Source of the DNA: Candidatus Tayloriibacteriota bacterium
GTDB taxonomy: Bacteria > Patescibacteriota > Minisyncoccia > Phycocordibacterales > PALSA-1337
Assembly (NCBI GenBank): GCA_943350765.1
Contig: CALRAJ010000003.1
Coordinates: 1,456-65,455, forward strand
Direction of reading: 5' to 3'
DNA length: 64,000 nt
In this document: positions 5,218 to 60,342 of the stretch, piece by piece
Position numbering within the stretch: the stretch's first letter is position 1
Layout: every line of letters begins with the position of its first letter
Translations under genes and position numbers: made by a program
Notes under the pieces: generated by a model
Told to the model about the DNA's origin: nothing
The model's database searches: none
What the model saw: only the letters and a program-made list of their open reading frames with translations

Positions 5218-5293
5218 GCGGCTATAGCTCAGTCGGTAGAGCACCTGCCTTTTAAGCAGAGGGTCGTTGGTTCGATTCCAACTAGCCGCACCA
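5218..5293 (+). tRNA. tRNA-Lys(TTT)
   Basis: Cloverleaf, anticodon loop CTTTTAA, GTTCGATT T-loop, encoded CCA. Confidence 0.95.
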
Positions 5294-5315
5294 ATTTAAA
5301 AATCTCCCAAATTCA

Positions 5316-5499
5316 TTTGGGAGATTTTTAAATTGGTGCGGCTAGAGCAAGCCGACTGCTCGGCTTGCGTTTGGAATCGAACAGCGGAGCCATGTTTTTC
5401 TACCAAGAAAAACGGGCGAGCTGGTGCCCAGACTTTTCCGAGCGACGGCGAGGAAAAAGTCGCGGGCGATAAATGTACCCATGGTCCAACTAGCCGCAA
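5316..5499 (+). repeat. tRNA-Lys 3'-end cassette (inverted copy + body A + direct copy)
   Basis: TGGTGCGGCTAG...TTGGAATCGAAC is antisense to the tRNA 3' half; ends with direct copy CCAACTAGCCGCA. Confidence 0.8.
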
Positions 5500-5543
5500 T
5501 CACGCATAGGATCAATTGTTTTTAAAGGTCATTAGTAATTTTA

Positions 5544-5696
5544 TTAATAATCAAGGTCGTCTTTCGCTTTTTGATCTCGTTTGTAAAATTTTATCGAAAT
5601 ATTTAGAATAGAACCCCGTATATCTTCTAGTTTACTGTTTATCGCTATAAGTAAGCAGATTGTTAATAGTGCAAATATGGTGAGTAGTGTATTCAT
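5544..5696 (-). CDS. small hydrophobic peptide (50 aa)
   Basis: MNTLLTIFALLTICLLIAINSKLEDIRG...; TG-T-TACTAT box just upstream of the ATG. Confidence 0.45.
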   Translation of the reverse strand: MNTLLTIFALLTICLLIAINSKLEDIRGSILNISIKFYKRDQKAKDDLDY

Positions 5697-5781
5697 TTTT
5701 TTGTATAGTAACATACTACTATAGAATGAGTTTAGGGTTATCCACAGGTACTATATTCATTAAGTGCTACAATTAGTATAT

Positions 5782-5922
5782 AAGGTCATCAAATTTCATA
5801 TACCATCCAGATGGTAATTGTTTCCGACCAAAGGCGGGTCTAGCCCCTGAAATTAAGGAGCGAATTGCTCAAAACCCTTGCAAGGCTGAGAAACTGGATA
5901 GTACATGAAATTTGAGGATCTT
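5782..5922 (+). ncRNA. putative structured ncRNA, family unknown
   Basis: TG-C-TACAAT at 5765-5773; closing stem TCAAATTTCAT/ATGAAATTTGA extended by ATCCAG/CTGGAT; T-tract at the end; no ORF. Confidence 0.5.
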
Positions 5923-6038
5923 TTTCTTGTGTTTACTTATTGTACTCTACCATGTATGGCTTTATGACTAAAGAAAAAAGTGGATAAGTATTGTATTCGA
6001 GATTGAAAAAGGGAGATTGTAAACTAAGGTATATAAAG

Positions 6039-6188
6039 CTAACGAAAGAGATACTCTACAATTTTAGTACCAACTGGTGCTAAAATTGACACAGTAATCA
6101 TTATGGAAATCAATGAGAACCACGATACTTTCTCTGCAACCTCTTTTTCTAGTTTTTTAATTCTTATTTCAAGGTCTTCGTAATCCAT
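6039..6188 (-). CDS. small coiled-coil + TM peptide (49 aa)
   Basis: MDYEDLEIRIKKLEKEVAEKVSWFSLISIMITVSILAPVG...; follows the DoxX gene. Confidence 0.45.
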   Translation of the reverse strand: MDYEDLEIRIKKLEKEVAEKVSWFSLISIMITVSILAPVGTKIVEYLFR

Positions 6189-6206
6189 TTTATTTTTTAT
6201 AAGTTT

Positions 6207-6560
6207 TTACAACGGTAAATCAAACGCCCACGCACCTGCACCAGTAAAGAGTAGCGACAGTGCAATCACAAACAGGATCAAGTAATAATTGACACCAGCC
6301 GTGAGGAACGACCTACTCCTAATCTTCTGTACTAGTCTAAACCCGAGAATGAGCATGGCTAAAATAGAAGCAATCTGTGTGTATAGCCCGATGACAAACA
6401 AAATACCCACGAGTATTTTCACTATTGCCAGAGGTTTCTCTGTTTTCGACTTTGCCAAGCGCTCATAGCCAAAATAAATAAAGATAGTGCCGAGTAGTAA
6501 TCGGAGCAAAAAAGGTGAGAGTAAAGAAAGATACAACAGCTCTGGAAATGGATTTAACAT
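6207..6560 (-). CDS. DoxX-family membrane protein
   Basis: LLRLLLG, GLYTQIA, GAGAWAFD motifs. Confidence 0.8.
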   Translation of the reverse strand: MLNPFPELLYLSLLSPFLLRLLLGTIFIYFGYERLAKSKTEKPLAIVKILVGILFVIGLYTQIASILAMLILGFRLVQKIRSRSFLTAGVNYYLILFVIALSLLFTGAGAWAFDLPL

Positions 6561-6584
6561 ACTAAATAGTATATCATCACCTCC

Positions 6585-7085
6585 ATGGATACACAAAATG
6601 GCCTAAAACACGCAGAAAAAACAGCTTACATCATCCTTCATAATATCCGTAGTGTCTACAATGTCGGCTCGGCGTTCCGCACTGCCGATGCTCTCGGTAT
6701 CGACAAGATTTTCCTCACTGGCTACACACCAACACCGCTCGACCGTTTCAAGCAACTTAGAAAAGATTTGGCAAAAGTGGCACTCGGCGCCGAAAAAACC
6801 TTGGCTTGGGAATATGTCAAAAATCCAGCCGTACTCGTAGATCGCCTTAGGGGTGAGGGTGTGCAATGTGTTGCTGTCGAGCAGTTTGAAAAGTCGGTAG
6901 ACTACAAAATGGTGAAAATAGAGTATCCAACAGCGTTTCTTTTTGGTAATGAAGTGTCCGGTGTTTCAAAAAGTTTGCTTTCAAAAATGGATGTGATTGC
7001 TGAGATACCTATGGGAGGTAAAAAAGAGTCTCTTAATGTATCGGTGTCTTTGGGTGTAGCACTCTTTAGGATGCTGGGGAAGTGA
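6585..7085 (+). CDS. TrmH/SpoU-family RNA methyltransferase
   Basis: NIRSVYNVGSAFRTADA, FGNEVSG, IPMGGKKESLNVS. Confidence 0.92.
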   Translation: MDTQNGLKHAEKTAYIILHNIRSVYNVGSAFRTADALGIDKIFLTGYTPTPLDRFKQLRKDLAKVALGAEKTLAWEYVKNPAVLVDRLRGEGVQCVAVEQFEKSVDYKMVKIEYPTAFLFGNEVSGVSKSLLSKMDVIAEIPMGGKKESLNVSVSLGVALFRMLGK

Positions 7086-7264
7086 CTCTTTGCAAGTCCT
7101 TGCGAAGAAAAAAGCTTCAACGGCTCAGTGGTTTTACGGCTGAGCCGTTCCAGCTAAAATATGGCTCTAGATATAGGTTTAAACGGCTAAACACTAGTGT
7201 TTAGCCGTTTAGGTATTAGCGAAAACAGGCGATTTTGGGTATAAACCTCATGATCGTTTACTCT

Positions 7265-7441
7265 CTATTTTGTCTGCACAAAAGCGGGTTCTACGAAAGG
7301 CTTTTTTTGGTCTTTTGATCTCTCGGGAGCACCAGATAGGAACCATGCGAGACCGAGAATAATCAAAAATCCCACAAGCCATTTGAGGTCATCTACGGGG
7401 TCTGCTTTTGGTCCTGGTTTTGGTTTTTTGTCGTCTGCCAT
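7265..7441 (-). CDS. small membrane protein (58 aa)
   Basis: MADDKKPKPGPKADPVDDLKWLVGFLIILGLAWFLSG... Confidence 0.55.
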   Translation of the reverse strand: MADDKKPKPGPKADPVDDLKWLVGFLIILGLAWFLSGAPERSKDQKKPFVEPAFVQTK

Positions 7442-7497
7442 GGAATAGAATAGTTAAAAGTACGAAGTCGTAAGTCAAAATTTCTAATTCGTTTAAA

Positions 7498-8430
7498 TTA
7501 AGTATAACACTGTTGGTGTGTATCGCAAAAGTGTGCGCTTCGACCGCCTATTTTGAGTTTGGTGATTTTGCCCAGACATTTTTTCTTGGCACAGCTTTCA
7601 TGGGTTTTTTGGTAAGCTTGATGATGATGCTGGAAACTACCCTTGGTGCCGAGTGGGGTGCGGTAGTCAGAGGTGGAATCACCACCAAAATCAATACCCT
7701 TTTTGAGGAGGAGCTTGGTCGAAGCGAACATTTTTTGCAATTGCTTATCGGGAATCCTTGATACTATCGACAGTGGATGAATATCAGAATCCCAGAGGAT
7801 TTCGTCTGAGTAAATATTACCTATACCTGAGATGACCATCGGCTCGATCAAAACCTGCTTGATTTTACCTTTGGGTCTGGTCATCAGGCGTATTTTAAAT
7901 TTATCAAAGTCGAAATCTTTTTCTAGCGGTTCCGGACCTATATCAGAAAGGTGGTGAGATTTTTGAGCGGTAGCGGTAGGAAGTAGGGTGATTTTGGCAA
8001 ATTTGCGGACATCGGAGAGGGCAAGGTGGCGACCGTTTTTAAACGAGATGATAAAATGAACAAATCGGCTGTACGGGTCTTTTAACTCCTCTGGCTCCAT
8101 TGCTTCCCAAACTGATTTCGACTCAGTACTTTTGACTTTTGACTTCAGGTATTTCCCGTACAGTAGTTGCCCCGTCATTTTCATGTGGACGAGGATCGTC
8201 TGGTCGTTGTCTAGGTTGATGAGTATATTTTTACCTCGCCTCGTGACATTTTTTATTTTTGCGTCGGTCACAGCAACTCGAAACTTTTGGAAAAACTTCG
8301 GGTCTTTAATAGTGTCTTTTCCTAGATGAGTCTTTCCACCATAGTCTGTCCAGACATCAGTAATCTGCTCGCCAGTGATCAGCTGGTCTAGCATCGTCGC
8401 TGTTGTGTGGACTTCGGGCAATTCGGGCAT
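7498..8430 (-). CDS. mutM: formamidopyrimidine-DNA glycosylase
   Basis: MPELPEV start, HMKMTG, GIGNIYSDE, C-terminal zinc finger. Confidence 0.95.
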   Translation of the reverse strand: MPELPEVHTTATMLDQLITGEQITDVWTDYGGKTHLGKDTIKDPKFFQKFRVAVTDAKIKNVTRRGKNILINLDNDQTILVHMKMTGQLLYGKYLKSKVKSTESKSVWEAMEPEELKDPYSRFVHFIISFKNGRHLALSDVRKFAKITLLPTATAQKSHHLSDIGPEPLEKDFDFDKFKIRLMTRPKGKIKQVLIEPMVISGIGNIYSDEILWDSDIHPLSIVSRIPDKQLQKMFASTKLLLKKGIDFGGDSTSDYRTPLGTKGSFQHHHQAYQKTHESCAKKKCLGKITKLKIGGRSAHFCDTHQQCYT

Positions 8431-8436
8431 GGATGT

Positions 8437-9003
8437 TTATTTTCCGAGCGATTTAAGAGCCGATTTTACACGGGCGCTAGTAGAGGTGATCTCTTTGGGT
8501 ACCTGCTTGAGTGCCTCGCGGGCTTCGTGAGGATTGTAGCCGAGGGATTTGAGGGCTTCGAGTGCATCTACCTCGTCCCTTAGGGTGATGTCAGTCTCGC
8601 CTTCATCGATAAACTTACCTCGAAGCTCGAGGACTATTTTGTCTGCTATTTTCCTACCGATACCTGAGACTTTGGTGAGGTGTGAAGTGTCGCCAGAGGA
8701 TACGGCTTTTCTGAGGGCGGGGAGGCTCGAGACATTGAGTACGCCGAGAGCGGTTTTCGGACCAATACCAGAAATAGATATGAGTAATTCAAAAAAGGAT
8801 AGCTCATCTTTGCCTTGGAAGCCGTAGAGTGTCATGGAGTCTTCGCGAACAGCTAGATGTGTCCAGAGCGAGATAGTTTTGTCTAAGGTAGAGCTTTCGA
8901 GTAGAGGGAGAGTGGTAAAGATTTTGTAGCCGACACCTTGGACATCGAGTACTAGGTACTTGTCGTCTTTGTGGATTACGGTACCCGTGAGGTAGGAGAT
9001 CAT
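8437..9003 (-). CDS. ruvA: Holliday junction branch migration protein RuvA
   Basis: MISYLTG, VREDS.TLYGF, SGIGPK, ALKSLGY. Confidence 0.96.
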   Translation of the reverse strand: MISYLTGTVIHKDDKYLVLDVQGVGYKIFTTLPLLESSTLDKTISLWTHLAVREDSMTLYGFQGKDELSFFELLISISGIGPKTALGVLNVSSLPALRKAVSSGDTSHLTKVSGIGRKIADKIVLELRGKFIDEGETDITLRDEVDALEALKSLGYNPHEAREALKQVPKEITSTSARVKSALKSLGK

Positions 9004-9083
9004 GCTGGGTACTATAGCATATTTTGGAGTTATATATAGAGCTGAGCTTGCCTAAATTTAAAATATGGTATAGTATTGTCCTC

Positions 9084-9356
9084 ATGCCAATAACCACATC
9101 TGCAAAGAAAGCCCTCAGAGGATCACAAAAGAAGCATGTTTTTAACATGCGTGCAAAGAAGTCGATTGACACTATTATGAAAAAGTTTAAGAAATTGGTG
9201 TCAGAAAAGAATGTAAAAGACGCCCTAGCTATTCTACCGTCACTTTACCAAGTACTCGATAAGGCTAGTAAGATAGGCTATATCAAGCCAAACAACGCTT
9301 CCCGCAACAAATCTCGGGTAGTGGCGATGTTAAAGAAGATAGAGGGGAAGGAGTAG
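9084..9356 (+). CDS. rpsT: 30S ribosomal protein S20
   Basis: MPITTSAKKALR...LDKASKIGYIKPNNASRNKSR. Confidence 0.95.
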   Translation: MPITTSAKKALRGSQKKHVFNMRAKKSIDTIMKKFKKLVSEKNVKDALAILPSLYQVLDKASKIGYIKPNNASRNKSRVVAMLKKIEGKE

Positions 9357-9366
9357 TGGGAAATAA

Positions 9367-9404
9367 AGAAAACTGCCGACCAGAAGGTCGGCAGTTTTCT
9401 ATTT
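9367..9404. terminator. intrinsic terminator after rpsT
   Basis: AGAAAACTGCCGACC-AGAA-GGTCGGCAGTTTTCT. Confidence 0.75.
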
Positions 9405-9563
9405 TGGTGCTCTTGGACAGACGCTTCGCTATCGAACTCCTGGGGAACCCCGTCTACAGGTGCACATCATCTACCGATGTGCCACGGTTCTCCCAATCCT
9501 TCCTCCACGGGAAAACGCCTGTTTTCCCGACCCCTTTCCTGTTCGATTCCTGCCAGGAACGCA
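9405..9563 (-). repeat. tRNA-Arg(GCG) 3'-end cassette (body B)
   Basis: Inverted copy GTTCGATTCCTGCCAGGA at 9541; body GGAAAGGGGTCGGG...CCCGTGGAGGA; degenerate direct copy ending GAGCACCA. Confidence 0.75.
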
Positions 9564-9585
9564 ACAAACAGCTACGCCTTTTTTG

Positions 9586-9657
9586 TGCTCCTGGCAGGAA
9601 TCGAACCTGCATTTCTCCCTTCGCAGGGGAGTGTCCTATCCGTTGAACGACAAGAGC
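9586..9657 (-). tRNA. tRNA-Arg(GCG)
   Basis: Anticodon arm CTCCC-CTGCGAA-GGGAG; CCA not encoded. Confidence 0.9.
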
Positions 9658-9666
9658 GGTAGGTAA

Positions 9667-9810
9667 ACCCCAAATTATGGAATACCGTCGCGGGCGTATC
9701 TTTTTGAAAGACTTCGGAAGCGGGTAGCTGAGACTTGAGAGATTTCTTACCAAAGAAATACTCGTGCTTTCAAAAAGATACGCTAAGAAAGGTGTTTCGT
9801 AATTTGGGGT
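9667..9810. mobile_element. MITE-like element, family D
   Basis: Termini ACCCCAAATTA/TAATTTGGGGT; core GTAGCTGAGACTTGAGAGATTT shared with copies at 44181, 51022 and 53063. Confidence 0.65.
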
Positions 9811-9882
9811 AAAGAAATATTAGCCAAACTAAAATTATCTAAAACACTAGCAGGAAACGCGATTTACCTTATCACACAAACA

Positions 9883-10344
9883 CTAAAATCCCAAGTATTC
9901 CAAGAGTCTGTGGCTGAGTGGCTCAACATATTCCTCTTGGTGTAAATATTTGGAAAGATATTGCTCTACAATGTCTGGATTGATGTCGCCAAGGAGGATT
10001 GTGATGTGTGGAACCATGACGCGTTTTGAGTGTATATAAAGTCTTGGTTCGTGATGATTGGTTTCTACCCAAAACGACTCGAGTGAGCGATATGGATACA
10101 AGGTGTTGCCAGAAAGTATGCCTTTTTCATTTATTTCATATTTTACCTCTAGTGGTACACGATGTGCATAGAGCGAGAGGGTAAAGGTACCTAATAGTAT
10201 AAAAATTGCGAGTAGAACATTATTAAAAATAATCGCTACTCCAGCAAGTGAAATAGAAATAATCCCCACTGCCCAAAACCAGTCTACGGTTTTTACTTTG
10301 TGTGAATATTCCGGTGCAACCCATTGTATAGGGAGGTATGCCAT
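9883..10344 (-). CDS. conserved hypothetical membrane protein (2 TM + soluble domain)
   Basis: W.APEY...KTVDWFW and LESFW pattern familiar from CPR proteins. Confidence 0.75.
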   Translation of the reverse strand: MAYLPIQWVAPEYSHKVKTVDWFWAVGIISISLAGVAIIFNNVLLAIFILLGTFTLSLYAHRVPLEVKYEINEKGILSGNTLYPYRSLESFWVETNHHEPRLYIHSKRVMVPHITILLGDINPDIVEQYLSKYLHQEEYVEPLSHRLLEYLGF

Positions 10345-10479
10345 GTCTGTATTGTATCATTTGTTTGCCATGAGCCACAATGGTAAAAGTGGGTATAAAA
10401 CAGTTTTAGTCCTAGGACGAGTTGGTTTAGCTTAACAGCCTTCCATTTATCTATTTTTATGCTAGTATACAAAGTCTAA

Positions 10480-10566
10480 GGATGGGTGCCAGAGTGGTCT
10501 AATGGAACAGTCTTGAAAACTGTCGCCTTCGCAAGGGGGCCGTGAGTTCGAATCTCACCCCATCCG
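10480..10566 (+). tRNA. tRNA-Ser(TGA)
   Basis: ACAGT-CTTGAAA-ACTGT arm, long variable arm, G discriminator. Confidence 0.94.
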
Positions 10567-10586
10567 CAGAGGAACGAAGTGAATAA

Positions 10587-10730
10587 GGAATGGGTGAGTT
10601 CGAACTGGAAGGGGGTCGGGGAAAATGGCGTTTCCCCGTGGAGGAAAACAACGAGTACTCGAGTGTTAGAAACCGTGGGTTTCTAAAACGCAGGCTACTG
10701 CCGAGCAGTGAGGTTCTCACCCCATCCGCC
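10587..10730 (+). repeat. tRNA-Ser(TGA) 3'-end cassette (body B)
   Basis: Degenerate inverted copy GGAATGGGTGAGTTCGAAC, body B, direct copy TCTCACCCCATCCG. Confidence 0.75.
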
Positions 10731-10897
10731 TTCGGTCCGCCGGAGCAGACCTACGGCGTGACGCAGTCCGCCAGTGGGTTTGCATAGGCGACCTTCGCCA
10801 TACTGAAGCATGGCTACGGCGTAAAAAAGTCCGCAGTAATTATGCGTCGACTTTCGCTAGAGTAATCTATATACTTGTATAGTGCTATAATAAAGCA

Positions 10898-11137
10898 ATG
10901 CATTATGTGTATAGTTTGAAATGTAAAGATGGTTATTATATTGGCTGTACCGATAATCTAAAAGATAGGATACTTAGGCACAAAGGAGGTAATGTGCCTG
11001 CTACCGCAAGTAGACTGTCCCTAGAGTTAGATTTCTATCTCGCGGTCAAGGATAAATACATAGCTTTTAATCTTGAGAAATATTTTAAATCTGGATCAGG
11101 TCGGACATTTATTAAAAAACATTTTATGACAATATAA
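10898..11137 (+). CDS. small GIY-YIG nuclease
   Basis: YVYSL...YIGCT..L..R...H, EKYFKSGSGR. Confidence 0.9.
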   Translation: MHYVYSLKCKDGYYIGCTDNLKDRILRHKGGNVPATASRLSLELDFYLAVKDKYIAFNLEKYFKSGSGRTFIKKHFMTI

Positions 11138-11194
11138 TGTCGAGATATTTTGATTTGCAACAGTTATCGATAATCATGAAAATTAAAAAATAAC

Positions 11195-11656
11195 ATGAAA
11201 TTATTAATTCCAAATTCTAATGAAATTGAATTGAAGACACTGATCTTAGATCTCAACGGCACACTCACGGTAAGAGGGGTGTTGGTCAAGGGAGTTTCAA
11301 AAAAACTAAAAGTATTGAAAAATAAGGGTTTAAAAGTAGTTTTATTTTCGGGTGATACTAGGGGTAATGGAAAAGATATATCTGATAAGCTAGGTATTGA
11401 ATTTTTTGTAACTTCTACTGGAGAAGAAAAACGAATAGAGGCTTCAAAATTAAATCCTGAAACATGCATTGCTATCGGTAATGGATTAATCGACACAGCT
11501 CTTTTTCGAACTGTAAAATTGTCTATAGCAACACTTCAATCTGAGGGTGTGCATGTCAAATGTCTTGAGGAAGCGGATATAGTAGTTTGTTCTATTTTGG
11601 ATGCCTTAGATTTATTGATCGATGAAAAAAGTTTAGTTTCAACATTGAGAGTGTAG
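11195..11656 (+). CDS. HAD-superfamily hydrolase (soluble P-type ATPase-like)
   Basis: DLNGTL, SGDTRG, AIGNGLID. Confidence 0.85.
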   Translation: MKLLIPNSNEIELKTLILDLNGTLTVRGVLVKGVSKKLKVLKNKGLKVVLFSGDTRGNGKDISDKLGIEFFVTSTGEEKRIEASKLNPETCIAIGNGLIDTALFRTVKLSIATLQSEGVHVKCLEEADIVVCSILDALDLLIDEKSLVSTLRV

Positions 11657-11728
11657 GATAGTTTTGAGTTTTGTGGAAATATATTATATAATTTATGACG
11701 CGCAAGAACTGACGCGCAAGAACGGTTC

Positions 11729-11992
11729 TTGCGAGTTTCCAAGTGTGTTGGTGGTCACTCCCTTTCTGGAAAAGAATTAGAAGTTGGATTGGAGATTACT
11801 AATTCTTCTAGAGCAAAGGAGGGGCAAGAAAAAATTGCTTTAGATTACTATACGGCAGATAGTGTTCAAAAAATGTGGTCAGCAAAAATTACTAATTTTT
11901 GGATAAATATGTCAGTGAGAGATGAAAGTGGTTTTATATTAAGAGATGAGAGAGTAGAATTAGAAAGAAATATTTTACTAAAAAGTATTTAA
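11729..11992 (+). CDS. hypothetical protein (start uncertain, possibly a remnant)
   Basis: ORF only; 14-bp tandem duplication upstream. Confidence 0.3.
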   Translation: MRVSKCVGGHSLSGKELEVGLEITNSSRAKEGQEKIALDYYTADSVQKMWSAKITNFWINMSVRDESGFILRDERVELERNILLKSI

Positions 11993-12018
11993 ATATAAAT
12001 ACATAGATACTTCTTGAT

Positions 12019-12522
12019 ATGACCAAAAGAATTTTAATTGTAGGAGATTCAGGAAGGGGGAAGAGTACCATGGCAGAGAAACTCTCGAAAAAGACAGGTA
12101 TACCTTTTTATTCCACGGATGATTTTTATTGGAAGACAAAGTTCACTGAAGTTAATGATAAACAAAAAAGTATCGAAGATATTGGAAAGATCTATAGCAA
12201 TAATGAATGGATTGTAGAAGGTGGAACTCGCCACTTAATTCAAGAGGGACTTGCTTGTGCGGACATTATTTATCTTCTGGAATTTAATAATATCTTCCTA
12301 CAGTATTATTTCTTGTTTTTTAGACATACAAAAAGAGAAAACGAACGATTGATTGATTTTTTGAATCTACTAAAACATATTACTTATAAAAGATACAAGA
12401 AGGGTTATGGGAATCATTTACCATCACTTGAAAATATGCTTAAGCCGTATGAGAATAAGGTTATAAGACTTAGATCACGAAAAGAAATCTATAGATGTGT
12501 GGATGAGATTACCCGAGGCTAA
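12019..12522 (+). CDS. adenylate kinase-like/FlaR-type P-loop protein
   Basis: GDSGRGKST, DDFYW, WIVEG. Confidence 0.8.
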   Translation: MTKRILIVGDSGRGKSTMAEKLSKKTGIPFYSTDDFYWKTKFTEVNDKQKSIEDIGKIYSNNEWIVEGGTRHLIQEGLACADIIYLLEFNNIFLQYYFLFFRHTKRENERLIDFLNLLKHITYKRYKKGYGNHLPSLENMLKPYENKVIRLRSRKEIYRCVDEITRG

Positions 12523-12597
12523 ATATTCTTGTTGATCTAATATGTTATAATACAAAAGAAAGAGATTTTTATTAGTTTTAAAGTATTAATTGTTTTT

Positions 12598-13296
12598 ATG
12601 CAAAAAATTATCACCACAGTAGTCATCATTATAGTTATTGCCCTCGCCTCTTTCTTATACCTCACCCGACCGGTCAATGCCCCAACACAGTCAGTAGAAT
12701 CGGTAGCAGAAAGGCTTCCTACAGGCACTCCTACCACAGAGCAAAAGCTCTATCGTATTTCCCAAAAACAATCAGAAGTCCAGTTTAGTATTGGTGAGAT
12801 TTTGAACGGCTCACCCTTTACCGCAGTGGGGAAGACAAGTGAGGTAGCCGGAGATATACTCGTTTCAAAAAATACCGTTACCGTGGGGGAGATAGTAGTA
12901 AATGCAAAAACATTTAAAACGGACAGTACCCGTCGAGATGGAGCTATCGTCCGCTTTATTCTCAAATCAGATCAGCCAGCCAACGAATTTATTACATTTA
13001 AGCATACAAAACCTATCGTTCTTGCTTTGCCACCCGTTGTCGGCAAGGAAGTCACCGCTACTGTTTCAGGAGACCTGACCATCTCTGGAGTTACAAAGCC
13101 AGTAGTCATGAATGTAAAAATGACACTTCTGACTGTGAAAAATCAAATCTCAGGGGATGAATCATTTGTGATTACAGGAGACACTACTGTCAAGCGTTCA
13201 GACTTTGGACTAAAGATTCCCGAGCTTTCTTTCTTGGCGAGTGTGGATGATGTAGTAAAAATACATGTTGCGGTCACGGCAAATAGAATCCCATAG
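12598..13296 (+). CDS. YceI-family protein
   Basis: N-terminal TM; TDSTRRD, GDLTISGVTKPV, KRSDFGL. Confidence 0.88.
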   Translation: MQKIITTVVIIIVIALASFLYLTRPVNAPTQSVESVAERLPTGTPTTEQKLYRISQKQSEVQFSIGEILNGSPFTAVGKTSEVAGDILVSKNTVTVGEIVVNAKTFKTDSTRRDGAIVRFILKSDQPANEFITFKHTKPIVLALPPVVGKEVTATVSGDLTISGVTKPVVMNVKMTLLTVKNQISGDESFVITGDTTVKRSDFGLKIPELSFLASVDDVVKIHVAVTANRIP

Positions 13297-13360
13297 GTAG
13301 GGAAAATCCCTTACCTAGACTATGTTCGACTATTTTTCCAGTCTAGGATACTATATAAAT

Positions 13361-13666
13361 ATGCCCATCACTTCTTCACTGGTTGTTTCGTTTGCGATAG
13401 GGATTATTGTCGGAACACTTTTTGTCTACAAGAAAAGTGGGTCGTACGGAAAGAATAGACAGCACAGAGAAAAGGAAAAAAGAAAAGCATTAATAATGGA
13501 TTTATTCGCTACTCGCTTTGAGGTGCGAAATAATGATGTTGAGCGCATGTTTGCCGTGTCTGATGCGACGGCTACGAACTATTTGAGTGAGCTAGAGGCT
13601 GAGGGAAAGGTAAGGCAGGTGGGGAGTCGGGGGAGGTTTGTGACTTACGAGAAAATCAAAGGCTAA
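13361..13666 (+). CDS. membrane-anchored winged-HTH protein
   Basis: N-terminal TM then NNDVE..FAVSDATATNYLSELE..G. Confidence 0.75.
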   Translation: MPITSSLVVSFAIGIIVGTLFVYKKSGSYGKNRQHREKEKRKALIMDLFATRFEVRNNDVERMFAVSDATATNYLSELEAEGKVRQVGSRGRFVTYEKIKG

Positions 13667-13951
13667 ACAGGGGTGTTTAGCCTTTGAGCGTGGCTACACA
13701 GAGCCATTTTGGGTTTTTGGCTAAAACAGTCCTAATCGACCAAAATGGACTACATTTTGGTCGATTAGGACTGTTCGCCCGAGCATTTTTTGCTAAAAAT
13801 ACTTTAGGGCCTTATTTGGAGGTTTTTTATGTGAAATTGGTGTGGAAAGTGGTCTGGGAAGCAGGACTTGCCCCCGAAAATCTACTGATTTTCGGGGGGG
13901 CATGACTCCGTACTTTCGACTTTCGACTACCCTTTGTGCTATGCTCTCAGT

Positions 13952-14389
13952 ATGAAATATCTCGGTATAGACTATGGGTCAAAGCGAGTAGGTGTGGCGG
14001 TGTCTGATGAGACCGGGAAATTTGCCTTTGCAAAGGCGGTGCTAGTAAATGATAAAACACTTTTGCAGACCATCCACAAAATTTGTATGGAGGAAAAAGT
14101 AGAAGTAATTGTGTTGGGTGAATCAAAAGATTATGACGGTAAAGATAATCCGATTATGAAGCAAATCATGAGACATAAAGGAGAGCTTGAGACGGAGATT
14201 GGTGTGCCGGTCTACCTCGAGCCAGAGTTTATGACTTCATCCCAAGCAGAGCGGGTTGGATCACAAGACTTCAGCCAGAACAGAAGATCTGGACTAGGTA
14301 CGAGAAGTCCAAAGACTAAAAATATAATGCTCGACGCCTCCGCCGCGGCACTGATTTTGCAGAGTTACCTAGATAAAAATAGACAGTAG
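13952..14389 (+). CDS. ruvX: RuvX/YqgF-family nuclease
   Basis: LGIDYGSKRVGVAVSD, E.MTS, DASAAALILQSYLD. Confidence 0.93.
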   Translation: MKYLGIDYGSKRVGVAVSDETGKFAFAKAVLVNDKTLLQTIHKICMEEKVEVIVLGESKDYDGKDNPIMKQIMRHKGELETEIGVPVYLEPEFMTSSQAERVGSQDFSQNRRSGLGTRSPKTKNIMLDASAAALILQSYLDKNRQ

Positions 14390-14542
14390 ATATCAGACAT
14401 TAGTATTTAGACAACAGGCATCAGACATGTAAAAATACCCGCGGCGTACTCGCCGCGGGCCCTTTGTCCACGTATTTTCTAATGTCTATAATCTAACTAC
14501 TAAAATCTACCTTCTAGTCTTCGTTTGTGCTATGCTCTCAGT

Positions 14543-15319
14543 ATGGAAAAAATACGACTTTCGGCAAATATTATCTATGTGACCGATCTTCCGCGTGCCA
14601 AGGCATGGTACGAGAAGAATTTTGGTATGAAAACTCTAGAATATAGTCCGCCAGAATTCCTCGAAATGTCTCTTGGTGATCAAATCTTTTATATTGAAAC
14701 TGAAAATCCAAAAAGACCAGAAGGTTTTCGTGAGGTGTCTGTGGGTGGTGCCAGCTCGGCTATTTTTGCGGTAGATGATCTAAAGAAGACTGTTGAAGAT
14801 CTAAGGTCGAAAGGGGTAAAAATTGTCGCTGAGCCAGTCGAACCGTTTTGGGGAGGCTTGGTGGCAAAGGTGGCGGACCCAGATGGTAATTGTTTTACCT
14901 TAGATCAGGAAGTGAAGGTTGTGGTACCACCCAAAACACACATTTCGTACGAAGAATTCGCTCAAGTGGAAATCAAGGTGGGTAAAATACTTTCGGCAGA
15001 AAAAATTCCTGATACGGATAAGCTTTTGAAACTGGTGGTAGAATTTGGGCTAAAACCGTCGTCTCAAGAAATGGGAGACGACGGTTCGTCTAAAGCGAAT
15101 CAGCCGGATGTTCGCCAAATCGTTTCTGGAATCTTGACATATTTTCCAGACCCAGCTGTACTTGTGGGGAAAAAATGTATGTTTGTGACCAATCTGGAAC
15201 CTCGCAAAATCCGTGGCCATGAAAGCAACGGCATGCTTTTTGCGGTAAGCACTCCAGAAGGCACTTTTTCACTGCTCGAGCCGATAGACGCAATACCGCC
15301 GGGAACTAAAGCGAAATAA
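14543..15319 (+). CDS. VOC/glyoxalase domain fused to tRNA-binding OB domain (CsaA/Trbp111/MetG C-terminal-like)
   Basis: FAVDDL...PFWGG...DPDGN, then EIKVGKI...DKLLKL...RQIVSG...NLEPRKIRGHESNGM. Confidence 0.8.
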   Translation: MEKIRLSANIIYVTDLPRAKAWYEKNFGMKTLEYSPPEFLEMSLGDQIFYIETENPKRPEGFREVSVGGASSAIFAVDDLKKTVEDLRSKGVKIVAEPVEPFWGGLVAKVADPDGNCFTLDQEVKVVVPPKTHISYEEFAQVEIKVGKILSAEKIPDTDKLLKLVVEFGLKPSSQEMGDDGSSKANQPDVRQIVSGILTYFPDPAVLVGKKCMFVTNLEPRKIRGHESNGMLFAVSTPEGTFSLLEPIDAIPPGTKAK

Positions 15320-15320
15320 T

Positions 15321-15920
15321 ATGAGCATACTTGAGCTTCTCGATCCAAAAATATTAATACAGACAGTGGGTATTCTCGGAGTTTTTGCGGTGATTTTTGC
15401 CGAGTCTGGACTTTTTTTCGGATTTTTCTTGCCTGGCGACTCACTTCTTTTTACGGCTGGGTTGCTGGCATCACAAGATTATTTTAGTATCACTTCACTT
15501 ATCTTCGGCTGTATTATTTTTGCTATCCTCGGTGATAATGTCGGGTATGCTTTTGGTCGACGGGTGGGGGAGAAGATATTTATTCGAGAAGACTCTTTCT
15601 TTTTTCATAAAAAGCATGTTGCGCGAGCGCAAATATTTTATGAAAAATACGGTAAAAAGGCGATTGTTTTGGCACGATTTGTGCCAGTGGTTAGGACTTT
15701 TGCACCGATTTTAGCTGGAGTAGGAAAAATGCAATACCGAACTTTTTTAGTCTACAATATTGTCGGTGGCGTGGTTTGGGTCTCGGCGTTGTCTCTACTC
15801 GGCTTTGTTTTAGGAAATACGGTACCAGACATAGATAAGTATGTATTGCCGATTATAGCGTTAATTATTTTTATTTCCATCTTACCTATATTGCTTTCGT
15901 ATATAAAAAGCCGAAAGTAA
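15321..15920 (+). CDS. DedA/VTT-family membrane protein
   Basis: FAESG..FGFFLPGDSLLF, ARFVPVVRTFAP. Confidence 0.93.
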   Translation: MSILELLDPKILIQTVGILGVFAVIFAESGLFFGFFLPGDSLLFTAGLLASQDYFSITSLIFGCIIFAILGDNVGYAFGRRVGEKIFIREDSFFFHKKHVARAQIFYEKYGKKAIVLARFVPVVRTFAPILAGVGKMQYRTFLVYNIVGGVVWVSALSLLGFVLGNTVPDIDKYVLPIIALIIFISILPILLSYIKSRK

Positions 15921-16046
15921 AAGGATATTGGTAGTTATTCATTCCATTTATTTAGTTGCCGTAGTATAATATAGGGGAAGTTTTATCCATGTTTTTGGGT
16001 GTGTACCTCGAATTATAAAATGCTCTTGCAGGCGTATATTTAAGAT

Positions 16047-17051: not shown

Positions 17052-17054
17052 ATT

Positions 17055-17606
17055 ATGTATCATCTTCTTCCACTAGCCGAAAAAAGATTACTGCTCTCTG
17101 AGTATAAAACTCGTTTTTTGATTGTTTCATTGGTAGCATTACTAGTACTTATTTTGCTTGGAATAGTATTTCTTCTACCCTCATTATTTTTAGCCGATGC
17201 AAAAAATCAAGCTGTAAATAGTCGCATCAAGATATTGAAAGACACAGTCCTGAGTAAGCAAGACAGCACTATAAGTACTATTTTTGAGAGTACTAAATCT
17301 GATTTGAAATTATTGACGAGTGGACAAGATTCTCTATCGCTTAGAACTTTGCTCGAGACAATCATAAACGATCGTATTTCAGGAATAAGTATAAGAAGCT
17401 TTTCTTTTTCTCGCATAGAGGCTGATGGAAGTATTCTTGCAACAATAAAAGGGGTGTATACAGAGAGAGATTCGCTAGTCGCTTTTCGCAAGAGTCTGGA
17501 GAGAGAAAAGATATTTAATAGGGTTGATTTGCCGATCTCGTCTTTAGCAAAAAGTAAAAATGCAGATTTTACTATTGAGCTAGTTGCCTCCGAACCTAAA
17601 AAATAA
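17055..17606 (+). CDS. PilN-like protein
   Basis: HLLP motif + TM; directly after pilM. Confidence 0.7.
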   Translation: MYHLLPLAEKRLLLSEYKTRFLIVSLVALLVLILLGIVFLLPSLFLADAKNQAVNSRIKILKDTVLSKQDSTISTIFESTKSDLKLLTSGQDSLSLRTLLETIINDRISGISIRSFSFSRIEADGSILATIKGVYTERDSLVAFRKSLEREKIFNRVDLPISSLAKSKNADFTIELVASEPKK

Positions 17607-17610
17607 AAAT

Positions 17611-18189: not shown

Positions 18190-18194
18190 AGTAT

Positions 18195-18555
18195 ATGACA
18201 GATAGTATATTCACAAAAGAAGGTATTGCGATAAAACCAGTATCACAAAAAAAAGTTCAAAAAGCTCCTAAGCGCTATTTTAGACGATTAGGACATGATG
18301 TAAATCAGGATTGGCTGATGATCGTGGGGAGCTTTATGTGTTTATCGGTTATTTTTTTTGATTATCGCTATCTGGATATATAGTACTGTATATGCTGGAA
18401 AAAGCTTTTCATTTGAAACCAATTCAATACCAGCGTCTCCTGTTCTAATAAATACAAAATCACTAACCGAAACCATAGAAAAGTATGAGCAAAAAAGACT
18501 AAAGTTTAATTTTTTGCAACAGAATGGGGTGAGGAGCTTTGACCCATCTCTGTAA
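18195..18555 (+). pseudogene. fourth pil-operon membrane gene, frameshifted at T8
   Basis: T8 at 18352-18359; T7 fuses ORFs 18195-18383 and 18358-18555 through one continuous TM helix. Confidence 0.65.
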
Positions 18556-18663: not shown

Positions 18664-18684
18664 AATAAACCTGTAAGGGTTTTT

Positions 18685-19025
18685 TGTGCAACCTCGGTTG
18701 GAATCGAACCGGAAAGGGGTCGGGGAACGGGAGTTCCCCGTGGAGGAAAACAACGAGTACTCGAGTGTTAGAAACCGTGGGTTTCTAAAGAGCCCGACAC
18801 ACGGAGGGCGAGTGAGATAGCGAAGCGCCCAACCGAGGGCACAAAAAAATGCGGAGCACTTTTTGTGCCCTCGAGCAGGCAAACTGCTTTGCCTGCGGGT
18901 CGGAATCGAACAGCGGAGTCATGTTTTTATACCAAGAAAAACAGGCGAGCTGGTGCCCAGACCAAAGTTTTTGACGAAAAACTTTGAGTCGCGGGCGATA
19001 AATGTACTCATGGTCCAACCGAGGG
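18685..19025 (+). repeat. two tandem tRNA-Arg(TCT) 3'-end cassettes (body B then body A)
   Basis: Inverted copies at ~18685-18709 and ~18864-18911; direct copies CCAACCGAGGG at ~18829 and ~19015. Confidence 0.8.
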
Positions 19026-27271: not shown

Positions 27272-27415
27272 TGGTGCGCGATGAGGGAATCTTTTTCCCT
27301 AGAGGACGGTCACCGTCGCTGAGCACTTTTTTGTTCGCGAGTACACTAAAAAAAGTGCTCAGCGAGGCTTCAAGTCCCTACGCAAAGCGTACCCACGCTT
27401 TGCTCATCACATACG
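27272..27415 (-). repeat. tRNA-Val 3'-end cassette (body C)
   Basis: Direct copy TCCCTCATCGCGCACCA at 27272-27288; inverted copy TTCAAGTCCCT[hairpin]CATCAC at ~27369-27410. Confidence 0.75.
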
Positions 27416-27439
27416 AAAAAATCCCTTTCGGGATTGTTT

Positions 27440-30364: not shown

Positions 30365-30413
30365 CAAAAATAATGAGACAAACGCGGAGCGTTTGTCGAC
30401 TGTATTTTTGGCA

Positions 30414-30536
30414 TGGTTAGAGAGAATCGGACGACGGAGCGGGGTACCCACATAACAATGTGGGTCGCGAGTCGGTGCCCAGACCGAGGCGAGTGGCGAC
30501 GAGCCTTGAGTCGCGGGAGATTCTCTCTAGCCACCC
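30414..30536 (+). repeat. tRNA-His 3'-end cassette (body A)
   Basis: Inverted copy TGGTTAGAGAGAATCGGAC; body GGTGCCCAGAC...GAGTCGCGGG; direct copy GATTCTCTCTAGCCACCC. Confidence 0.8.
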
Positions 30537-57312: not shown

Positions 57313-57547
57313 GAAATTCTATTTTATTAAAAACAGTCATTGATAAAAACTAGAAAATAGCCTCGAGTAGGGGCGTAGTTTGGCGGAAAGGCTCGACGGG
57401 TGACCAGTGAGCCGTTGAACCTGTTTCCCCCGATTTTCAGTAGAAAATCGGGGGACTGACTGAGTACTCGGTACTTTCGACTTTTGAACTGCTCCCATTC
57501 TTAATTCCTAAATCTGGCTTCTACTCAAAATATGCTATAGTACTATT

Positions 57548-59245
57548 ATGATTTCAGACCAGATACAAAAGGCAGTACAGAGTGCTGTGGCAGAGCTTGG
57601 TATGCAAGCTGGTGAGGTAGTTCTCGAGCACCCAGGCGAGCTTTCTCGCGGTGACTATGCGACCAATGTGGCGATGGCTCTAGCTAAAAAGGCAGTGGTC
57701 AAGCCAAAGGATCTTGCTGAGAAAATTGCGACAGCTATCCGTGCTCAAAACATCCCAGAAATTGCCAAAGTAGAAGTCGCTGGTCCGGGCTTTATCAACT
57801 TTTACCTCTCACAAACTTTTCTCGTCTCTGAAATAGCTAAAATCGTATCTCTCGGCGGGCAGTACGGTCTCAATAAAACCCTCGCAGGTAAGACGGTGAT
57901 GCTCGAATACACTAGTCCCAATCTTTTCAAACCACTTCATATCGGCAACCTAGTAGGTAATATTCTGGGAGAATCACTATCTCGATTACTTATCGCTAGT
58001 GGAGCCGAAGTCAAAAGAATCAACTACCCTTCTGATATAGGACTGACGGTAGCAAAAGGTGTGTGGGGACTTCAGAAAACGGGCGGTAATCCAAAAGATA
58101 TCAAGGCTCTCGGCGAAGCGTATCGAGTGGGTAACACTGCGTATGACGAAGCTGGTGATGAGAAAAAAGAAATTGAGGTGATCAACAAAGCACTCTACGA
58201 GTATTCAAATCCGACACTGACTACTTTGCGAAAAGATGGTATTGCGACATCGCTTCTGCATCTCGAGATGCTTTGTAAAAAGCTTGGTACAAAGTTCGAT
58301 ACACAGTTTTTCGAAAGTCAGTCTGCTCTGCTCGGTCGAGATATTGTACTTGCTAATATCACTAATGGTATTTTTGAAAAGAGTGACGGTGCTGTCATAT
58401 ACAAGGGCGAGGTAGATGGACTTCATACCCGAGTATTCCTCAACTCTCATGGCCTCCCGACCTACGAAGCAAAGGAGGTGGGACTCTTTAAACTCAAAAG
58501 TGAGGCGTATCCAAACTTCGACATCTCGATAACCGTTACTGGTAATGAGCAACTAGACTTTTTCAGGGTAGTGTTTTCAGCGATTAAAAAAGTATTTAAG
58601 GAGGAGACTAAGGGGAAGGTCTTGCGTCATGTACCAAACGGCTTTTTGACCCTCACGACAGGCAAGATGTCTTCTCGAAAGGGTAATGTGATTACGGGCG
58701 AATCACTCATCGAGACTGTACAGGAAATGGTGCGAGAAAAAGTCAAAGACCGAGGATTTGATGTGTCTACCACAGAAATAGTCGCAGAGTCGGTGGCTAT
58801 TGGTGCGATAAAGTATTCTATTCTTCGTCAGCAGATGGGAAGTAATATTATCTTTGATTTCGAAAAGTCCCTGTCTTTTGAGGGTGATTCTGGTCCATAT
58901 TTGCAATACACGACCGTGCGCGCAAGAACCGTTCTTGCGAAAGCGAAAATAGTAGGACTTGTGCCGTCGACAAAAAATAGTCCAAAGTCGATAGGCGATC
59001 TAGAGCGGGTCATCTATCGTTTTCCTGAGGTGCTGGAGAGAGCAACCCACGACTATGCACCACATCTTCTTGTGACTTTTGCTGTTGAGCTTTCAGCCAC
59101 ATTTAATGCGTTCTATGCCAATCAAACCATTATTGACGGAAAGGATCCTGATTCACTATATCGTCTTGCAATCACCTCGGCGGTAGCGTCAGTACTTGAG
59201 CAGTGCCTCTATGTACTCGCCATTCCTTTGCCCGAGAAGATGTAG
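57548..59245 (+). CDS. argS: arginine--tRNA ligase
   Basis: GDYATN, AGPGFIN, PLHIGN, KMSSRKG, GDSGPYLQY. Confidence 0.96.
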   Translation: MISDQIQKAVQSAVAELGMQAGEVVLEHPGELSRGDYATNVAMALAKKAVVKPKDLAEKIATAIRAQNIPEIAKVEVAGPGFINFYLSQTFLVSEIAKIVSLGGQYGLNKTLAGKTVMLEYTSPNLFKPLHIGNLVGNILGESLSRLLIASGAEVKRINYPSDIGLTVAKGVWGLQKTGGNPKDIKALGEAYRVGNTAYDEAGDEKKEIEVINKALYEYSNPTLTTLRKDGIATSLLHLEMLCKKLGTKFDTQFFESQSALLGRDIVLANITNGIFEKSDGAVIYKGEVDGLHTRVFLNSHGLPTYEAKEVGLFKLKSEAYPNFDISITVTGNEQLDFFRVVFSAIKKVFKEETKGKVLRHVPNGFLTLTTGKMSSRKGNVITGESLIETVQEMVREKVKDRGFDVSTTEIVAESVAIGAIKYSILRQQMGSNIIFDFEKSLSFEGDSGPYLQYTTVRARTVLAKAKIVGLVPSTKNSPKSIGDLERVIYRFPEVLERATHDYAPHLLVTFAVELSATFNAFYANQTIIDGKDPDSLYRLAITSAVASVLEQCLYVLAIPLPEKM

Positions 59246-59304
59246 AGCGAAGCAGTATTACAAGCTGATTGTAAATGGGTATAAAAAATGATACTATCTT
59301 AAGT

Positions 59305-59595
59305 ATGTCAAATAACACACTGTCACTTAGTCTCCCCGTACAAATCATAAAGCAAAACAAGCGTTTTGTGGCATATACTCCTGCACTCGATATTTCTACT
59401 TCAGGAAAAACTGAAAAAGAGGCACAAGCTCGTTTTGTTGAAATGGCGGAAATATTTTTCGAAGAAATTATTGAGGCGGGGACAGCTTCTGATGTACTTT
59501 CTGAACTTGGTTGGAAAATAGCTCAGAAAAAGTGGACTCCACCACAAATAATTTCTTCCCAGCCAGTCGGCTTTTGTATACCAACTTTTGTATAA
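59305..59595 (+). CDS. HicB-like antitoxin
   Basis: FVAYTPALDISTSGKTEKEA RNase H-like fold; upstream of HicA. Confidence 0.75.
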   Translation: MSNNTLSLSLPVQIIKQNKRFVAYTPALDISTSGKTEKEAQARFVEMAEIFFEEIIEAGTASDVLSELGWKIAQKKWTPPQIISSQPVGFCIPTFV

Positions 59596-59596
59596 T

Positions 59597-59824
59597 ATGC
59601 CTCGCATTCAGTCTATCCACTGGCGAGATTTTGAGAAGTTTCTTCTGAATATTGGATGTGAGTTTAAAAGACAGAAAGGCGATCATCGGGTGTATTGGAA
59701 AAAGGGTATCAAAAGACCGGTGGTTATTCCGCAGGATGCCTCCTTGCCCGCGTTCATTATTCTGAATAATTTGCGAGTACTCGGTATATCACGCGAGGAG
59801 TATTTGAAAAGTGTCGAAAAGTAG
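59597..59824 (+). CDS. HicA-family toxin
   Basis: RQKGDHRVY, PVVIP, GISREEY. Confidence 0.85.
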   Translation: MPRIQSIHWRDFEKFLLNIGCEFKRQKGDHRVYWKKGIKRPVVIPQDASLPAFIILNNLRVLGISREEYLKSVEK

Positions 59825-59895
59825 AGAGTGCCAGACATCTTTCAAAACAGTGGGGCAGTGTGCTAGTATGGGAAACGACATCGTGCAATAATATT

Positions 59896-59982
59896 GGAGA
59901 GATGGATGAGTGGCTTAAATCAACGGTTTACTAAACCGTCGTTCCCTAACAGGAACCGTGGGTTCGAATCCCACTCTCTCCG
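59896..59982 (+). tRNA. tRNA-Ser with ACT anticodon
   Basis: Ser body (GGAGAGA acceptor, long variable arm, G73); arm ACGGT-TTACTAA-ACCGT. Confidence 0.88.
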
Positions 59983-60019
59983 CAAACGGCCCAAAAAGAA
60001 AGAAGTTCTTTTTGGGTAG

Positions 60020-60342
60020 CCGTTGCGCGAGAGAGTGGGATTCGAACGCCGGAACTCATAATTTTCAGTAGAAAATTTAGTGAGGCGGTGCCCAGACAAA
60101 TTTTTTCGACGGAAAAAATTTAGTCGCGGGCGAAAAACGTACTCGTGGTCTCGCTCTCTCCGCCTTCGGTCCGCAGTAGCTTGGCTTCGGAGTGACACAG
60201 TCCGCAGAAGATGAGCGAAGGCGGGAAGGGGATTCGAAGCCAGATTGAGTATTTTTTCGATTTTGTAATCAAATGAAGAAAAAATCCAATCGGGGTACTG
60301 AAACTGTAAGTTTCGAAAAGCGTACTCGTGGTCTCGCTCTCT
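60020..60342 (+). repeat. tRNA-Ser(ACT) 3'-end cassettes (body A, then a degenerate second unit)
   Basis: Inverted copy GAGAGAGTGGGATTCGAAC; GGTGCCCAGAC...AGTCGCGGG; direct CTCTCTCCGC; CGTACTCGTGGTCTCGCTCTCT occurs twice. Confidence 0.75.

Follow-up and report, generated by a model that had tools for sequence, protein, structure and literature searches.

Seven of the eight tRNA genes in a 64,000-nucleotide stretch of the genome of a Candidatus Tayloriibacteriota bacterium (contig CALRAJ010000003.1; the whole stretch is called the window below) are followed by short cassettes whose arms match the 3′ end of the very gene they adjoin. Such cassettes are genuine and widespread, turn over fast and make up a family of insertions tailored to their tRNA genes. 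Each unit runs in a fixed order: the tRNA end, a spacer hairpin, an inverted copy of the tRNA from about base 74 to base 54, a folded body, and a direct copy from base 56–60 to about base 74. The bodies are non-coding and about 58–213 bases long, and the cassettes measure 140–200 bases. What is demonstrated below is how the units are laid out and tailored, that their boundaries are fixed, in which direction they insert, how they turn over from one sister genome to another, and that their fold is conserved.

Layout, tailoring and boundaries

The host genome (G000; 756 kb in 8 contigs, 96.6% complete) contains 40 tRNA genes and one tmRNA gene and was compared with two sister genomes of the same genus, G001 and G002. 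The eight window tRNAs were called by ARAGORN and Rfam. As proposed in an earlier note made from the window sequence, the cassette layout is found at Lys, Arg-GCG, Ser-TGA, Arg-TCT, Val, His and Ser-ACT and is missing at Leu-GAG, where no inverted copy of the gene's own positions 54–64 was present (top score 7/11). These positions are inverted at 11/11 behind Lys, Arg-GCG, Arg-TCT, Val, His and Ser-ACT, and behind Ser-TGA minus one base. When the 3′ flanks of all 41 tRNA and tmRNA genes were checked, 20 carried the inverted copy at 10/11 or better; counting Ser-TGA with its one-base deletion, the total is 21 of 41, tmRNA included, and the remaining genes score at most 9. The direct copies lie where the note had placed them, in degenerate form at Arg-GCG (10/14) and Ser-ACT (12/14), and its assignment of bodies A and B and of a third type at Val (our body C) was borne out; the labels A to E are ours and cover at least five body types. 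The inverted copy had been described as stopping at ...TCGAAC, but its real end is T54, and the final C occurs only ahead of bodies A and B. Two features are additions: a second Ser-ACT unit (body D, 60225–60342) and a common 25-nucleotide side hairpin that breaks the inverted copy of Lys, Val and Arg-TCT unit 2 at 64/65 or 65/66. The window features are as follows.

5218..5293 (+), tRNA-Lys(TTT), host gene
5294..5333 (+), Lys spacer hairpin, palindromic with the tRNA end
5334..5381 (+), Lys inverted copy: 76–65 at 5334–5345, 25-nucleotide side hairpin at 5346–5370, 64–54 at 5371–5381
5382..5484 (+), Lys body A: two hairpins with G·A-rich internal loops plus a small end hairpin
5485..5498 (+), Lys direct copy of 60–73
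9405..9584 (−), Arg-GCG cassette: spacer; inverted copy 9542–9562; body B 9422–9541; degenerate direct copy 9405–9421
near 9450–9483, dispersed palindrome nested in Arg-GCG body B
10568..10729 (+), Ser-TGA cassette: spacer; inverted copy 10587–10604 (minus one base); body B 10605–10714; direct copy 10715–10729
10730..10772 (+), leader of a GIY-YIG element: hairpin plus short inverted and direct copy of the acceptor end
10898..11137 (+), gene for a 79-amino-acid single-domain GIY-YIG nuclease, putatively of the mobilising-enzyme kind
18664..18842 (+), Arg-TCT unit 1: spacer; inverted copy 18686–18708; body B 18709–18827; direct copy 18828–18842
18843..19025 (+), Arg-TCT unit 2: spacer; inverted copy 18865–18910 with side hairpin 18874–18898; body A 18911–19013; direct copy 19014–19025
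27272..27439 (−), Val cassette: spacer; inverted copy 27369–27410 with side hairpin 27380–27404; body C 27289–27368; direct copy 27272–27288
30366..30536 (+), His cassette: spacer; inverted copy 30410–30431; body A 30432–30518; direct copy of 57–74 at 30519–30536
59984..60163 (+), Ser-ACT unit 1: spacer; inverted copy 60025–60046; body A 60047–60148; direct copy 60149–60163
60164..60342 (+), Ser-ACT unit 2: gene-less GIY-YIG-type leader from 60164; inverted copy to 60238; body D 60239–60331; direct copy 60332–60342

The Val direct copy is followed by a second terminator-like hairpin, and the T-stem letters of the direct copy of Ser-ACT unit 1 are those of the G002 allele of the same tRNA. The Ser-type tRNA at 59896–59983 itself has the anticodon ACT, unusual in bacteria, and Ser-ACT genes recur in other Patescibacteria loci.

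Are the arms specific to their own gene or merely like any tRNA? We compared 56 cassettes from the three genomes, found by a pattern anchored on body starts (18/41, 16/40 and 22/42 genes in G000, G001 and G002; the pattern overlooks some genes, Ala and Asn of G000 among them). The earlier note held the inverted arm to be a copy of the adjacent gene and not of a generic tRNA consensus, and inverted positions 54–64 indeed matched the adjacent gene at 10.55/11 on average, against 7.8/11 for other tRNAs of the same genome, with the own gene as best match in 52 cassettes. The direct copy was likewise closer to its own gene (11.2/14 versus 8.1, own gene best in 39/56). Where only one arm matches the present tRNA (Arg-TCG of G002, Ser-ACT, and Tyr of G001), the mismatch fits later allele exchange or conversion. 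Orthologous T-arms of Arg-TCG, Arg-CCT, Arg-GCG, Val-TAC, Ser-GGA and Ser-ACT in G000, G001 and G002 also differ by several compensated changes and, because these differences arise inside one genus, they suggest frequent whole-allele replacement.

The boundaries were mapped in an enriched set of 282 tRNAs. An inverted copy was seen in 118 of them, and 62 of the 118 also had a direct copy scoring 11/12 or higher. Of the 118 inverted copies, 107 end at T54 or G53. Direct copies begin at 55–57 in 19 cases, at 58–59 in 10 and at 60 in 33, the start at 60 arising mostly because a small hairpin separates base 59 from base 60; they end at 71–78 in 59 of the 62, with a mode of 74. Minimal forms track the variable T-loop letters 57 and 59. 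Past base ~78 the spacer is unrelated to the DNA behind the direct copy, save for three longer duplications, and we therefore take the spacer to arrive with the cassette. The idea that the spacer is a copy of the old trailer was rejected as unsupported over the same stretch.

A BLAST search of the genome with its own bodies placed 37 match regions no more than 500 bases from a tRNA and 8 farther off; the 8 represent a dispersed palindrome that is also nested in a body, one short hairpin match and two orphan pieces in decay. A decayed body-A copy with no adjoining tRNA or repeat arms lies in the window at ~61610–61720 (+), and a similar orphan of E type at G000:C5 ~11930–12020. The dispersed palindrome is nested in the second hairpin of body B and occurs at no fewer than 9 genome sites, among them 9450–9483, 9710–9745 and ~5060–5095 of the window. 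A short palindromic hairpin recurs at several sites between genes of the host genome (C3:15900, C3:49047 and C2:5509 among them), and its loop letters are found in bodies C and D. Run X1 is possibly from the source sample; its Logan contigs cross the tRNA and inverted copy at Ser-TGA and Arg-TCT with zero differences; as far as these contigs show, the cassettes are not an assembly artefact.

Turnover, polarity and spread

Cassettes change rapidly among the three genomes. Orthologues of Arg-GCG, Lys-TTT, Pro, Asn, Tyr and Asp carry different bodies, and for Cys, Leu-TAA, Gly-CCC, Gln-TTG and Ser-GGA one sister has a cassette that another lacks. Units are also stacked, with remnants of older bodies persisting behind newer ones. 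Because bodies are swapped, stacked, and present or absent at orthologues, and because the direct copy reads as a displaced old end, the cassettes are very probably mobile insertions.

The direction of insertion was apparent from 28 pairs of filled and empty orthologues: the empty trailer resembled the DNA past the direct copy, clearly above background, in 6 pairs and the spacer, only marginally, in 2, while 20 pairs were uninformative. A second, independent indication comes from relatives of the window GIY-YIG element, whose leader adjoins tRNA base 74 in 55 of 62 cases but adjoins the direct copy at Ser-TGA of the window and in locus L441. Thus, the direct copy is best read as the displaced old end. 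The earlier note had envisaged a non-coding element with both termini copied from its target; mobility and tailoring hold up, but the direct copy would be the original 3′ end pushed downstream and not a newly made one.

Body B was detected in 8 of 41 genomes (the host and 40 relatives), and a generic pattern of T-loop and inverted T-loop in 28 of 41, against 3 of 41 for a backwards control. Phylum-wide, the pattern occurs in 133/301 genomes, an upper bound that includes chance matches and convergent tRNA pairs. A 16-base core of body A has matches at 120 or more loci; among 80 analysed, 36 of 83 matches lie behind a same-strand tRNA, these tRNA-linked matches come from records labelled Patescibacteria or simply “bacterium”, and most others are apparent chance matches in other taxa. 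Relatives sharing the element include Paceibacteria, Nomurabacteria and Saccharibacteria, with body letters invariant between Paceibacteria and Saccharibacteria; together with its gene content, these relatives suggest that the host belongs among Patescibacteria. No cassette-skipping joint indicative of excision was seen among four contig sets from one study, although contigs are unable to prove absence; one RNA run, available in contig form, gave sparse cover.

Fold, candidate enzymes and proposed mechanism

Body A folds into two hairpins. In an alignment of 26 sequences, 19 of 29 pairs are changed on both sides, 96.7% of cells are paired and covariation is 0.54 versus 0.18 after shuffling, the sequences being mutually related as they also are in the loop counts that follow. 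When the inverted and direct copies pair, body A becomes part of a multi-way junction (z −6.0 for the Lys unit). Across 58 cassettes, C-GNA-G triloops number 28 in the sense and 1 in the antisense strand of the bodies (11.6 shuffled) and 15 and 0 in the spacers (2.7 shuffled). GNRA loops are not enriched (14 versus 21.9 shuffled in bodies; 18 versus 11 in spacers, inside the shuffled range), UUCG loops are absent, and A·G mismatches predominate. GNA triloops and sheared G·A pairs are stable in DNA in particular, and for this reason the folded form is probably sense-strand single-stranded DNA (ssDNA). A mechanism based on ssDNA is likely. The other suggestion of the earlier note, a cis RNA switch, is unsupported because cassettes are dispensable at orthologous genes and their loops are of DNA type, not of RNA type.

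Which enzyme could move such cassettes? All four small GIY-YIG genes of the host genome adjoin tRNA or tmRNA genes. The same holds for 16 of the 47 counted in eight other genomes, where 10 long or weak matches were set aside. Relatives of the 79-amino-acid nuclease of the window, which itself has no NCBIfam match, were located at 85 distinct loci, and at 62 of these the gene comes after a tRNA on its own strand, in most cases one for Ser. The leader of this element is the cassette layout in miniature, with a hairpin, a short inverted acceptor end, a tiny loop and a 5-base direct copy. This 5-base copy equals positions 70–74 of the adjacent tRNA in 54 of 55 parsed loci, all 6 atypical ends included (7 loci were unparsed), by a parse that limited which 5-mers could come back. 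A T-loop-type scar of at least 9 bases lies behind the GIY-YIG gene in 4 of 52 loci versus 1.5% of cross pairs, and in genome G109 the same element sits at two different Ser tRNAs with tailored scars. At L356 and L358, the order is tRNA-Ser, GIY-YIG leader and gene, inverted copy, A-like body and direct copy, an arrangement that may reflect nesting. The first open reading frame behind the cassettes was tried as a partner and rejected: these frames are heterogeneous and show a GIY-like motif in 1/94 versus 1/123, in a crude pick that overlooked the window GIY-YIG gene.

A second tailored structure was observed at tRNA 5′ ends, where a copy of the gene's first bases is interrupted by a palindrome near base 10–12. 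It occurs at the Lys gene of the window (5128–5190, +), ahead of tRNA-Thr(TGT) on G000:C1, and in L284, L294, L329 and L336; at the Thr and L loci a small GIY-YIG gene and then the intact tRNA come after it, and at Lys it is gene-less.

How might a cassette take its arms from its target? We favour, with a probability of about 0.5, insertion at the T-loop with the old end left downstream, the cassette moving as sense-strand ssDNA after a nick made in trans by a small Ssn-like GIY-YIG nuclease. The sense strand of the tRNA gene would be cut in the T-loop near the 56/57 junction, and the left 3′ end would re-copy 57–74 off the opposite strand, restoring the tRNA. Synthesis could then jump to a donor cassette for the spacer hairpin, use the fresh 3′ end as a fold-back template for the inverted copy as far as T54, return to the donor at the universal T-loop letters to write the body, and be completed by joining of the body end to the displaced old end. 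Newer units would thereby land beside the tRNA, and older ones would be shifted downstream, eroding as they go.

Besides the uninformative polarity pairs, the restricted leader parse and the relatedness of the folded sequences, several observations weigh against T-loop insertion by a GIY-YIG nick. No enzyme gene was found as a regular part of the cassettes, and only the near-identical loci L356 and L358 enclose a GIY-YIG gene between tRNA and inverted copy. The correlation with GIY-YIG genes proposed in the earlier note is present but weak, with a mean of 5.6 in 18 cassette-rich versus 3.1 in 24 other genomes (one-sided p 0.026; kin are non-independent and UvrC-type matches are counted in). 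G001 and G002, with 16 and 22 cassettes, have one small GIY-YIG gene each, neither near a tRNA; G177 and G255 have one weak match apiece; and the window subfamily occurs in 24 of 301 class genomes. GIY-YIG enzymes cut DNA, and a joining activity is not known for them. For the side hairpin within the inverted arm, one more template switch or a subsequent insertion would have to be assumed. The acceptor part of the inverted copy matches its own gene at 6.4/8 versus 4.8 for others, with the own gene best in just 32/56, and RNA folding parameters likewise favour the sense strand (56/58). Finally, the tRNA-linked repeats (TLRs) of Escherichia coli, to which we return below, are transcribed (PMC8144298). 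Given the weak co-occurrence, the sisters without a tRNA-adjacent copy and the lack of a regularly enclosed gene, a small GIY-YIG nuclease acting in trans is put forward as the cassette enzyme tentatively, at somewhat less than even odds.

Alternatively, the cassette could be a functional RNA of the tRNA trailer, with arms pairing as an acceptor/T-stem mimic to form a small RNA, a processing signal or a switch, as suggested for the E. coli TLR products RtT and RrA/B/F, which are processed after transcription, and for the TLR repeat as an RNase E signal (available text of PMC8144298). Covariation is as compatible with RNA as with DNA, and the strand preference under RNA parameters agrees. We consider this reading unlikely, because single-copy orthologues differ in whether they carry a cassette, in which body they carry and in whether units are stacked, and bodies are enriched in GNA triloops and not in GNRA or UUCG loops; moreover, the spacer that usually intervenes, an A-tract, hairpin and T-tract, would by its appearance likely end transcription, although a terminator scan missed that of Lys. 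A system with no dedicated enzyme, in which att-like duplications and quasi-palindrome template switching make the arms and homologous recombination or transformation shuffles the bodies, would agree with the fact that none of the enzymes tracks the cassettes well and with mismatches at Arg-TCG of G002, Ser-ACT of G000 and G002, and Tyr of G001 that fit allele exchange with crossovers in bodies. It leaves unexplained the fixed boundaries at T54 and 56–60, the invariance of body letters over Paceibacteria and Saccharibacteria, the near confinement of bodies to tRNA ends and the spacers unrelated to the old trailer, and is decidedly unlikely.

The product topology, site–spacer–inverted site–loop–site, is that expected if a tyrosine recombinase integrated a folded ssDNA circle by one T-loop strand exchange, in the manner of CTXphi and integrons; direct repeats from 57–60 also recall the att scars of tRNA-targeting integrases, and the fold appears to be ssDNA. 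Such a circle would, however, bring a donor 3′ end, which is contradicted by tailoring over many tRNA types. The integrase correlation suggested earlier failed too: one tyrosine recombinase is found in the host genome, away from the cassettes, and one in 19 of 26 cassette-rich genomes, as in cassette-poor ones. Viral contigs gave 0 matches to bodies A and B and phage records no body match, and we regard integration of a circle as very unlikely. A reverse transcriptase (RT) that copies the tRNA and jumps to body RNA is largely refuted and of negligible probability. An RT is present in the window, and a direct-copy edge near 59 recalls RT stops at modified A58, but the gene belongs to a diversity-generating retroelement (DGR) with its own template and variable repeats (TR/VR identical at 92/115, 16 of 23 changes at adenines) and an Avd match under the curated cut-off. 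RT genes do not follow the cassettes as the earlier note had supposed they might (11/26 cassette-rich versus 8/26 pattern-free genomes, p 0.57; none found in G001 despite its 16 cassettes), and the inverted arm continues along the gene sequence beyond base 74, with no CCA end.

The DGR occupies 36865–39319 of the window, with its target open reading frame at 36865–37545, VR at 37431–37545, TR at 37786–37900, RT at 38168–39319 and an Avd-like frame on the opposite strand at 37909–38253; a truncated IS256-type transposase adjoins the target gene. Elsewhere in the host genome, tRNA-Thr(GGT) at G000:C6:13253–13510 has a 182-base anticodon-loop intron found in neither sister genome.

Relation to known repeats

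The earlier note called the element undescribed. No account of Patescibacteria cassettes or of tRNA-docked GIY-YIG leaders was found in literature outside subscription journals, but E. coli TLRs share the four-part layout. TLRs lie immediately behind a tRNA or rRNA gene; they are defined by an 18–19-base copy of the adjacent gene's 3′ end and their function is given as unknown in the available text of PMC8144298. The word “inverted” is missing from the main text of that paper; how new the inverted arm is may depend on its supplements and on the papers that first described TLRs. In K-12, we found at tyrT/tyrV and lysT-lysQ a spacer hairpin, a tailored inverted arm (Tyr versus Lys), a common multi-hairpin body and a direct copy of 58/59–76, with GNA triloops numbering 27 sense versus 1 antisense in the TLR regions. 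Like TLRs, the cassettes adjoin tRNA 3′ ends, form tandem units and have no settled function, and their direct copies are of 18–19 bases (56/57–74) in minimal forms and 60–74 where the small hairpin intervenes. In contrast, the TLR inverted arm covers ~59–68 and mostly stops short of the T-loop (lysQ being an exception), whereas the cassette arm runs from ~74 to 54; the cassettes further stand apart by a side hairpin and a repertoire of five or more types of body, and they occupy half of the tRNA genes and turn over fast. Rfam at gathering score gave tRNA only over the whole window, with generic hairpin matches below threshold; the RtT model had no match up to E 5 in 5150–19200, and by eye the bodies differ from TLRs. 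Given the shared four-part layout, the cassettes are a new variant of a known, unexplained kind. In other reports on E. coli, raised coverage at tyrT/rttR is described and, for RNA genes, ascribed to RNA/DNA hybrids and not to circles (10.1101/2024.07.17.603846, in part), and rttR is listed among the losses of some lineages (PMC3318445, in part).

The closest parallel for a nuclease is Ssn. SsnA binds ssDNA at a hairpin and makes its cut on the upstream side, and Ssn nucleases are proposed, with mobility no more than a proposal, to have spread their own repeats (PMC11893778, in part). In the Ssn systems, a single-domain GIY-YIG protein of ~80–100 amino acids lies beside directional ssDNA hairpins (NTS/SRM repeats), and the window gene and its relatives are likewise small single-domain GIY-YIG genes next to hairpin repeats; SRMs, however, are fixed 20–50-nucleotide repeats without target-derived arms, and “tRNA” appears nowhere in PMC11893778.

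Three further systems are compared here from general knowledge. Tyrosine-integrase att scars similarly displace the old 3′ end downstream, place a replacement end and terminator by the gene and accrete in tandem, but the cassettes have no integrase, cargo or arm repeats, do have an inverted copy, and one body enters many tRNAs. CTXphi-type IMEX elements and integron attC sites share folded ssDNA, inverted site copies and an equal product topology; their site is fixed (dif, attI) and their ends are element-borne, whereas cassette ends match each target tRNA. REP/RAYT elements and miniature inverted-repeat transposable elements are likewise short, non-coding, palindromic and non-autonomous; the cassettes differ in having no fixed terminal repeats and in being confined to tRNA and tmRNA ends, and no Y1 transposase (PF01797) was found in the host genome.

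It is possible, though doubtful enough that we would not press it, that the cassettes represent a new class of mobile element, in which ssDNA units without genes derive their ends from each target after a T-loop nick by a miniature GIY-YIG nuclease resident at tRNA genes; TLRs, a puzzle since 1978, would count among its old members. For tRNA-linked repeats, which have been known from E. coli for decades and still lack a settled function, the comparison offers an origin that can be tested, and it makes them part of a wider kind of element that is very active in Patescibacteria. On the practical side, the duplicated tRNA ends are prone to being misread as att sites of prophages or islands, and assemblies of reduced genomes break at them. 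If nicking and template switching do operate, insertion at any tRNA gene, with the gene rebuilt, would take an ~80-amino-acid nuclease and host repair, Ssn-like nucleases would gain a role in mobility, and one body could enter any tRNA gene harmlessly.

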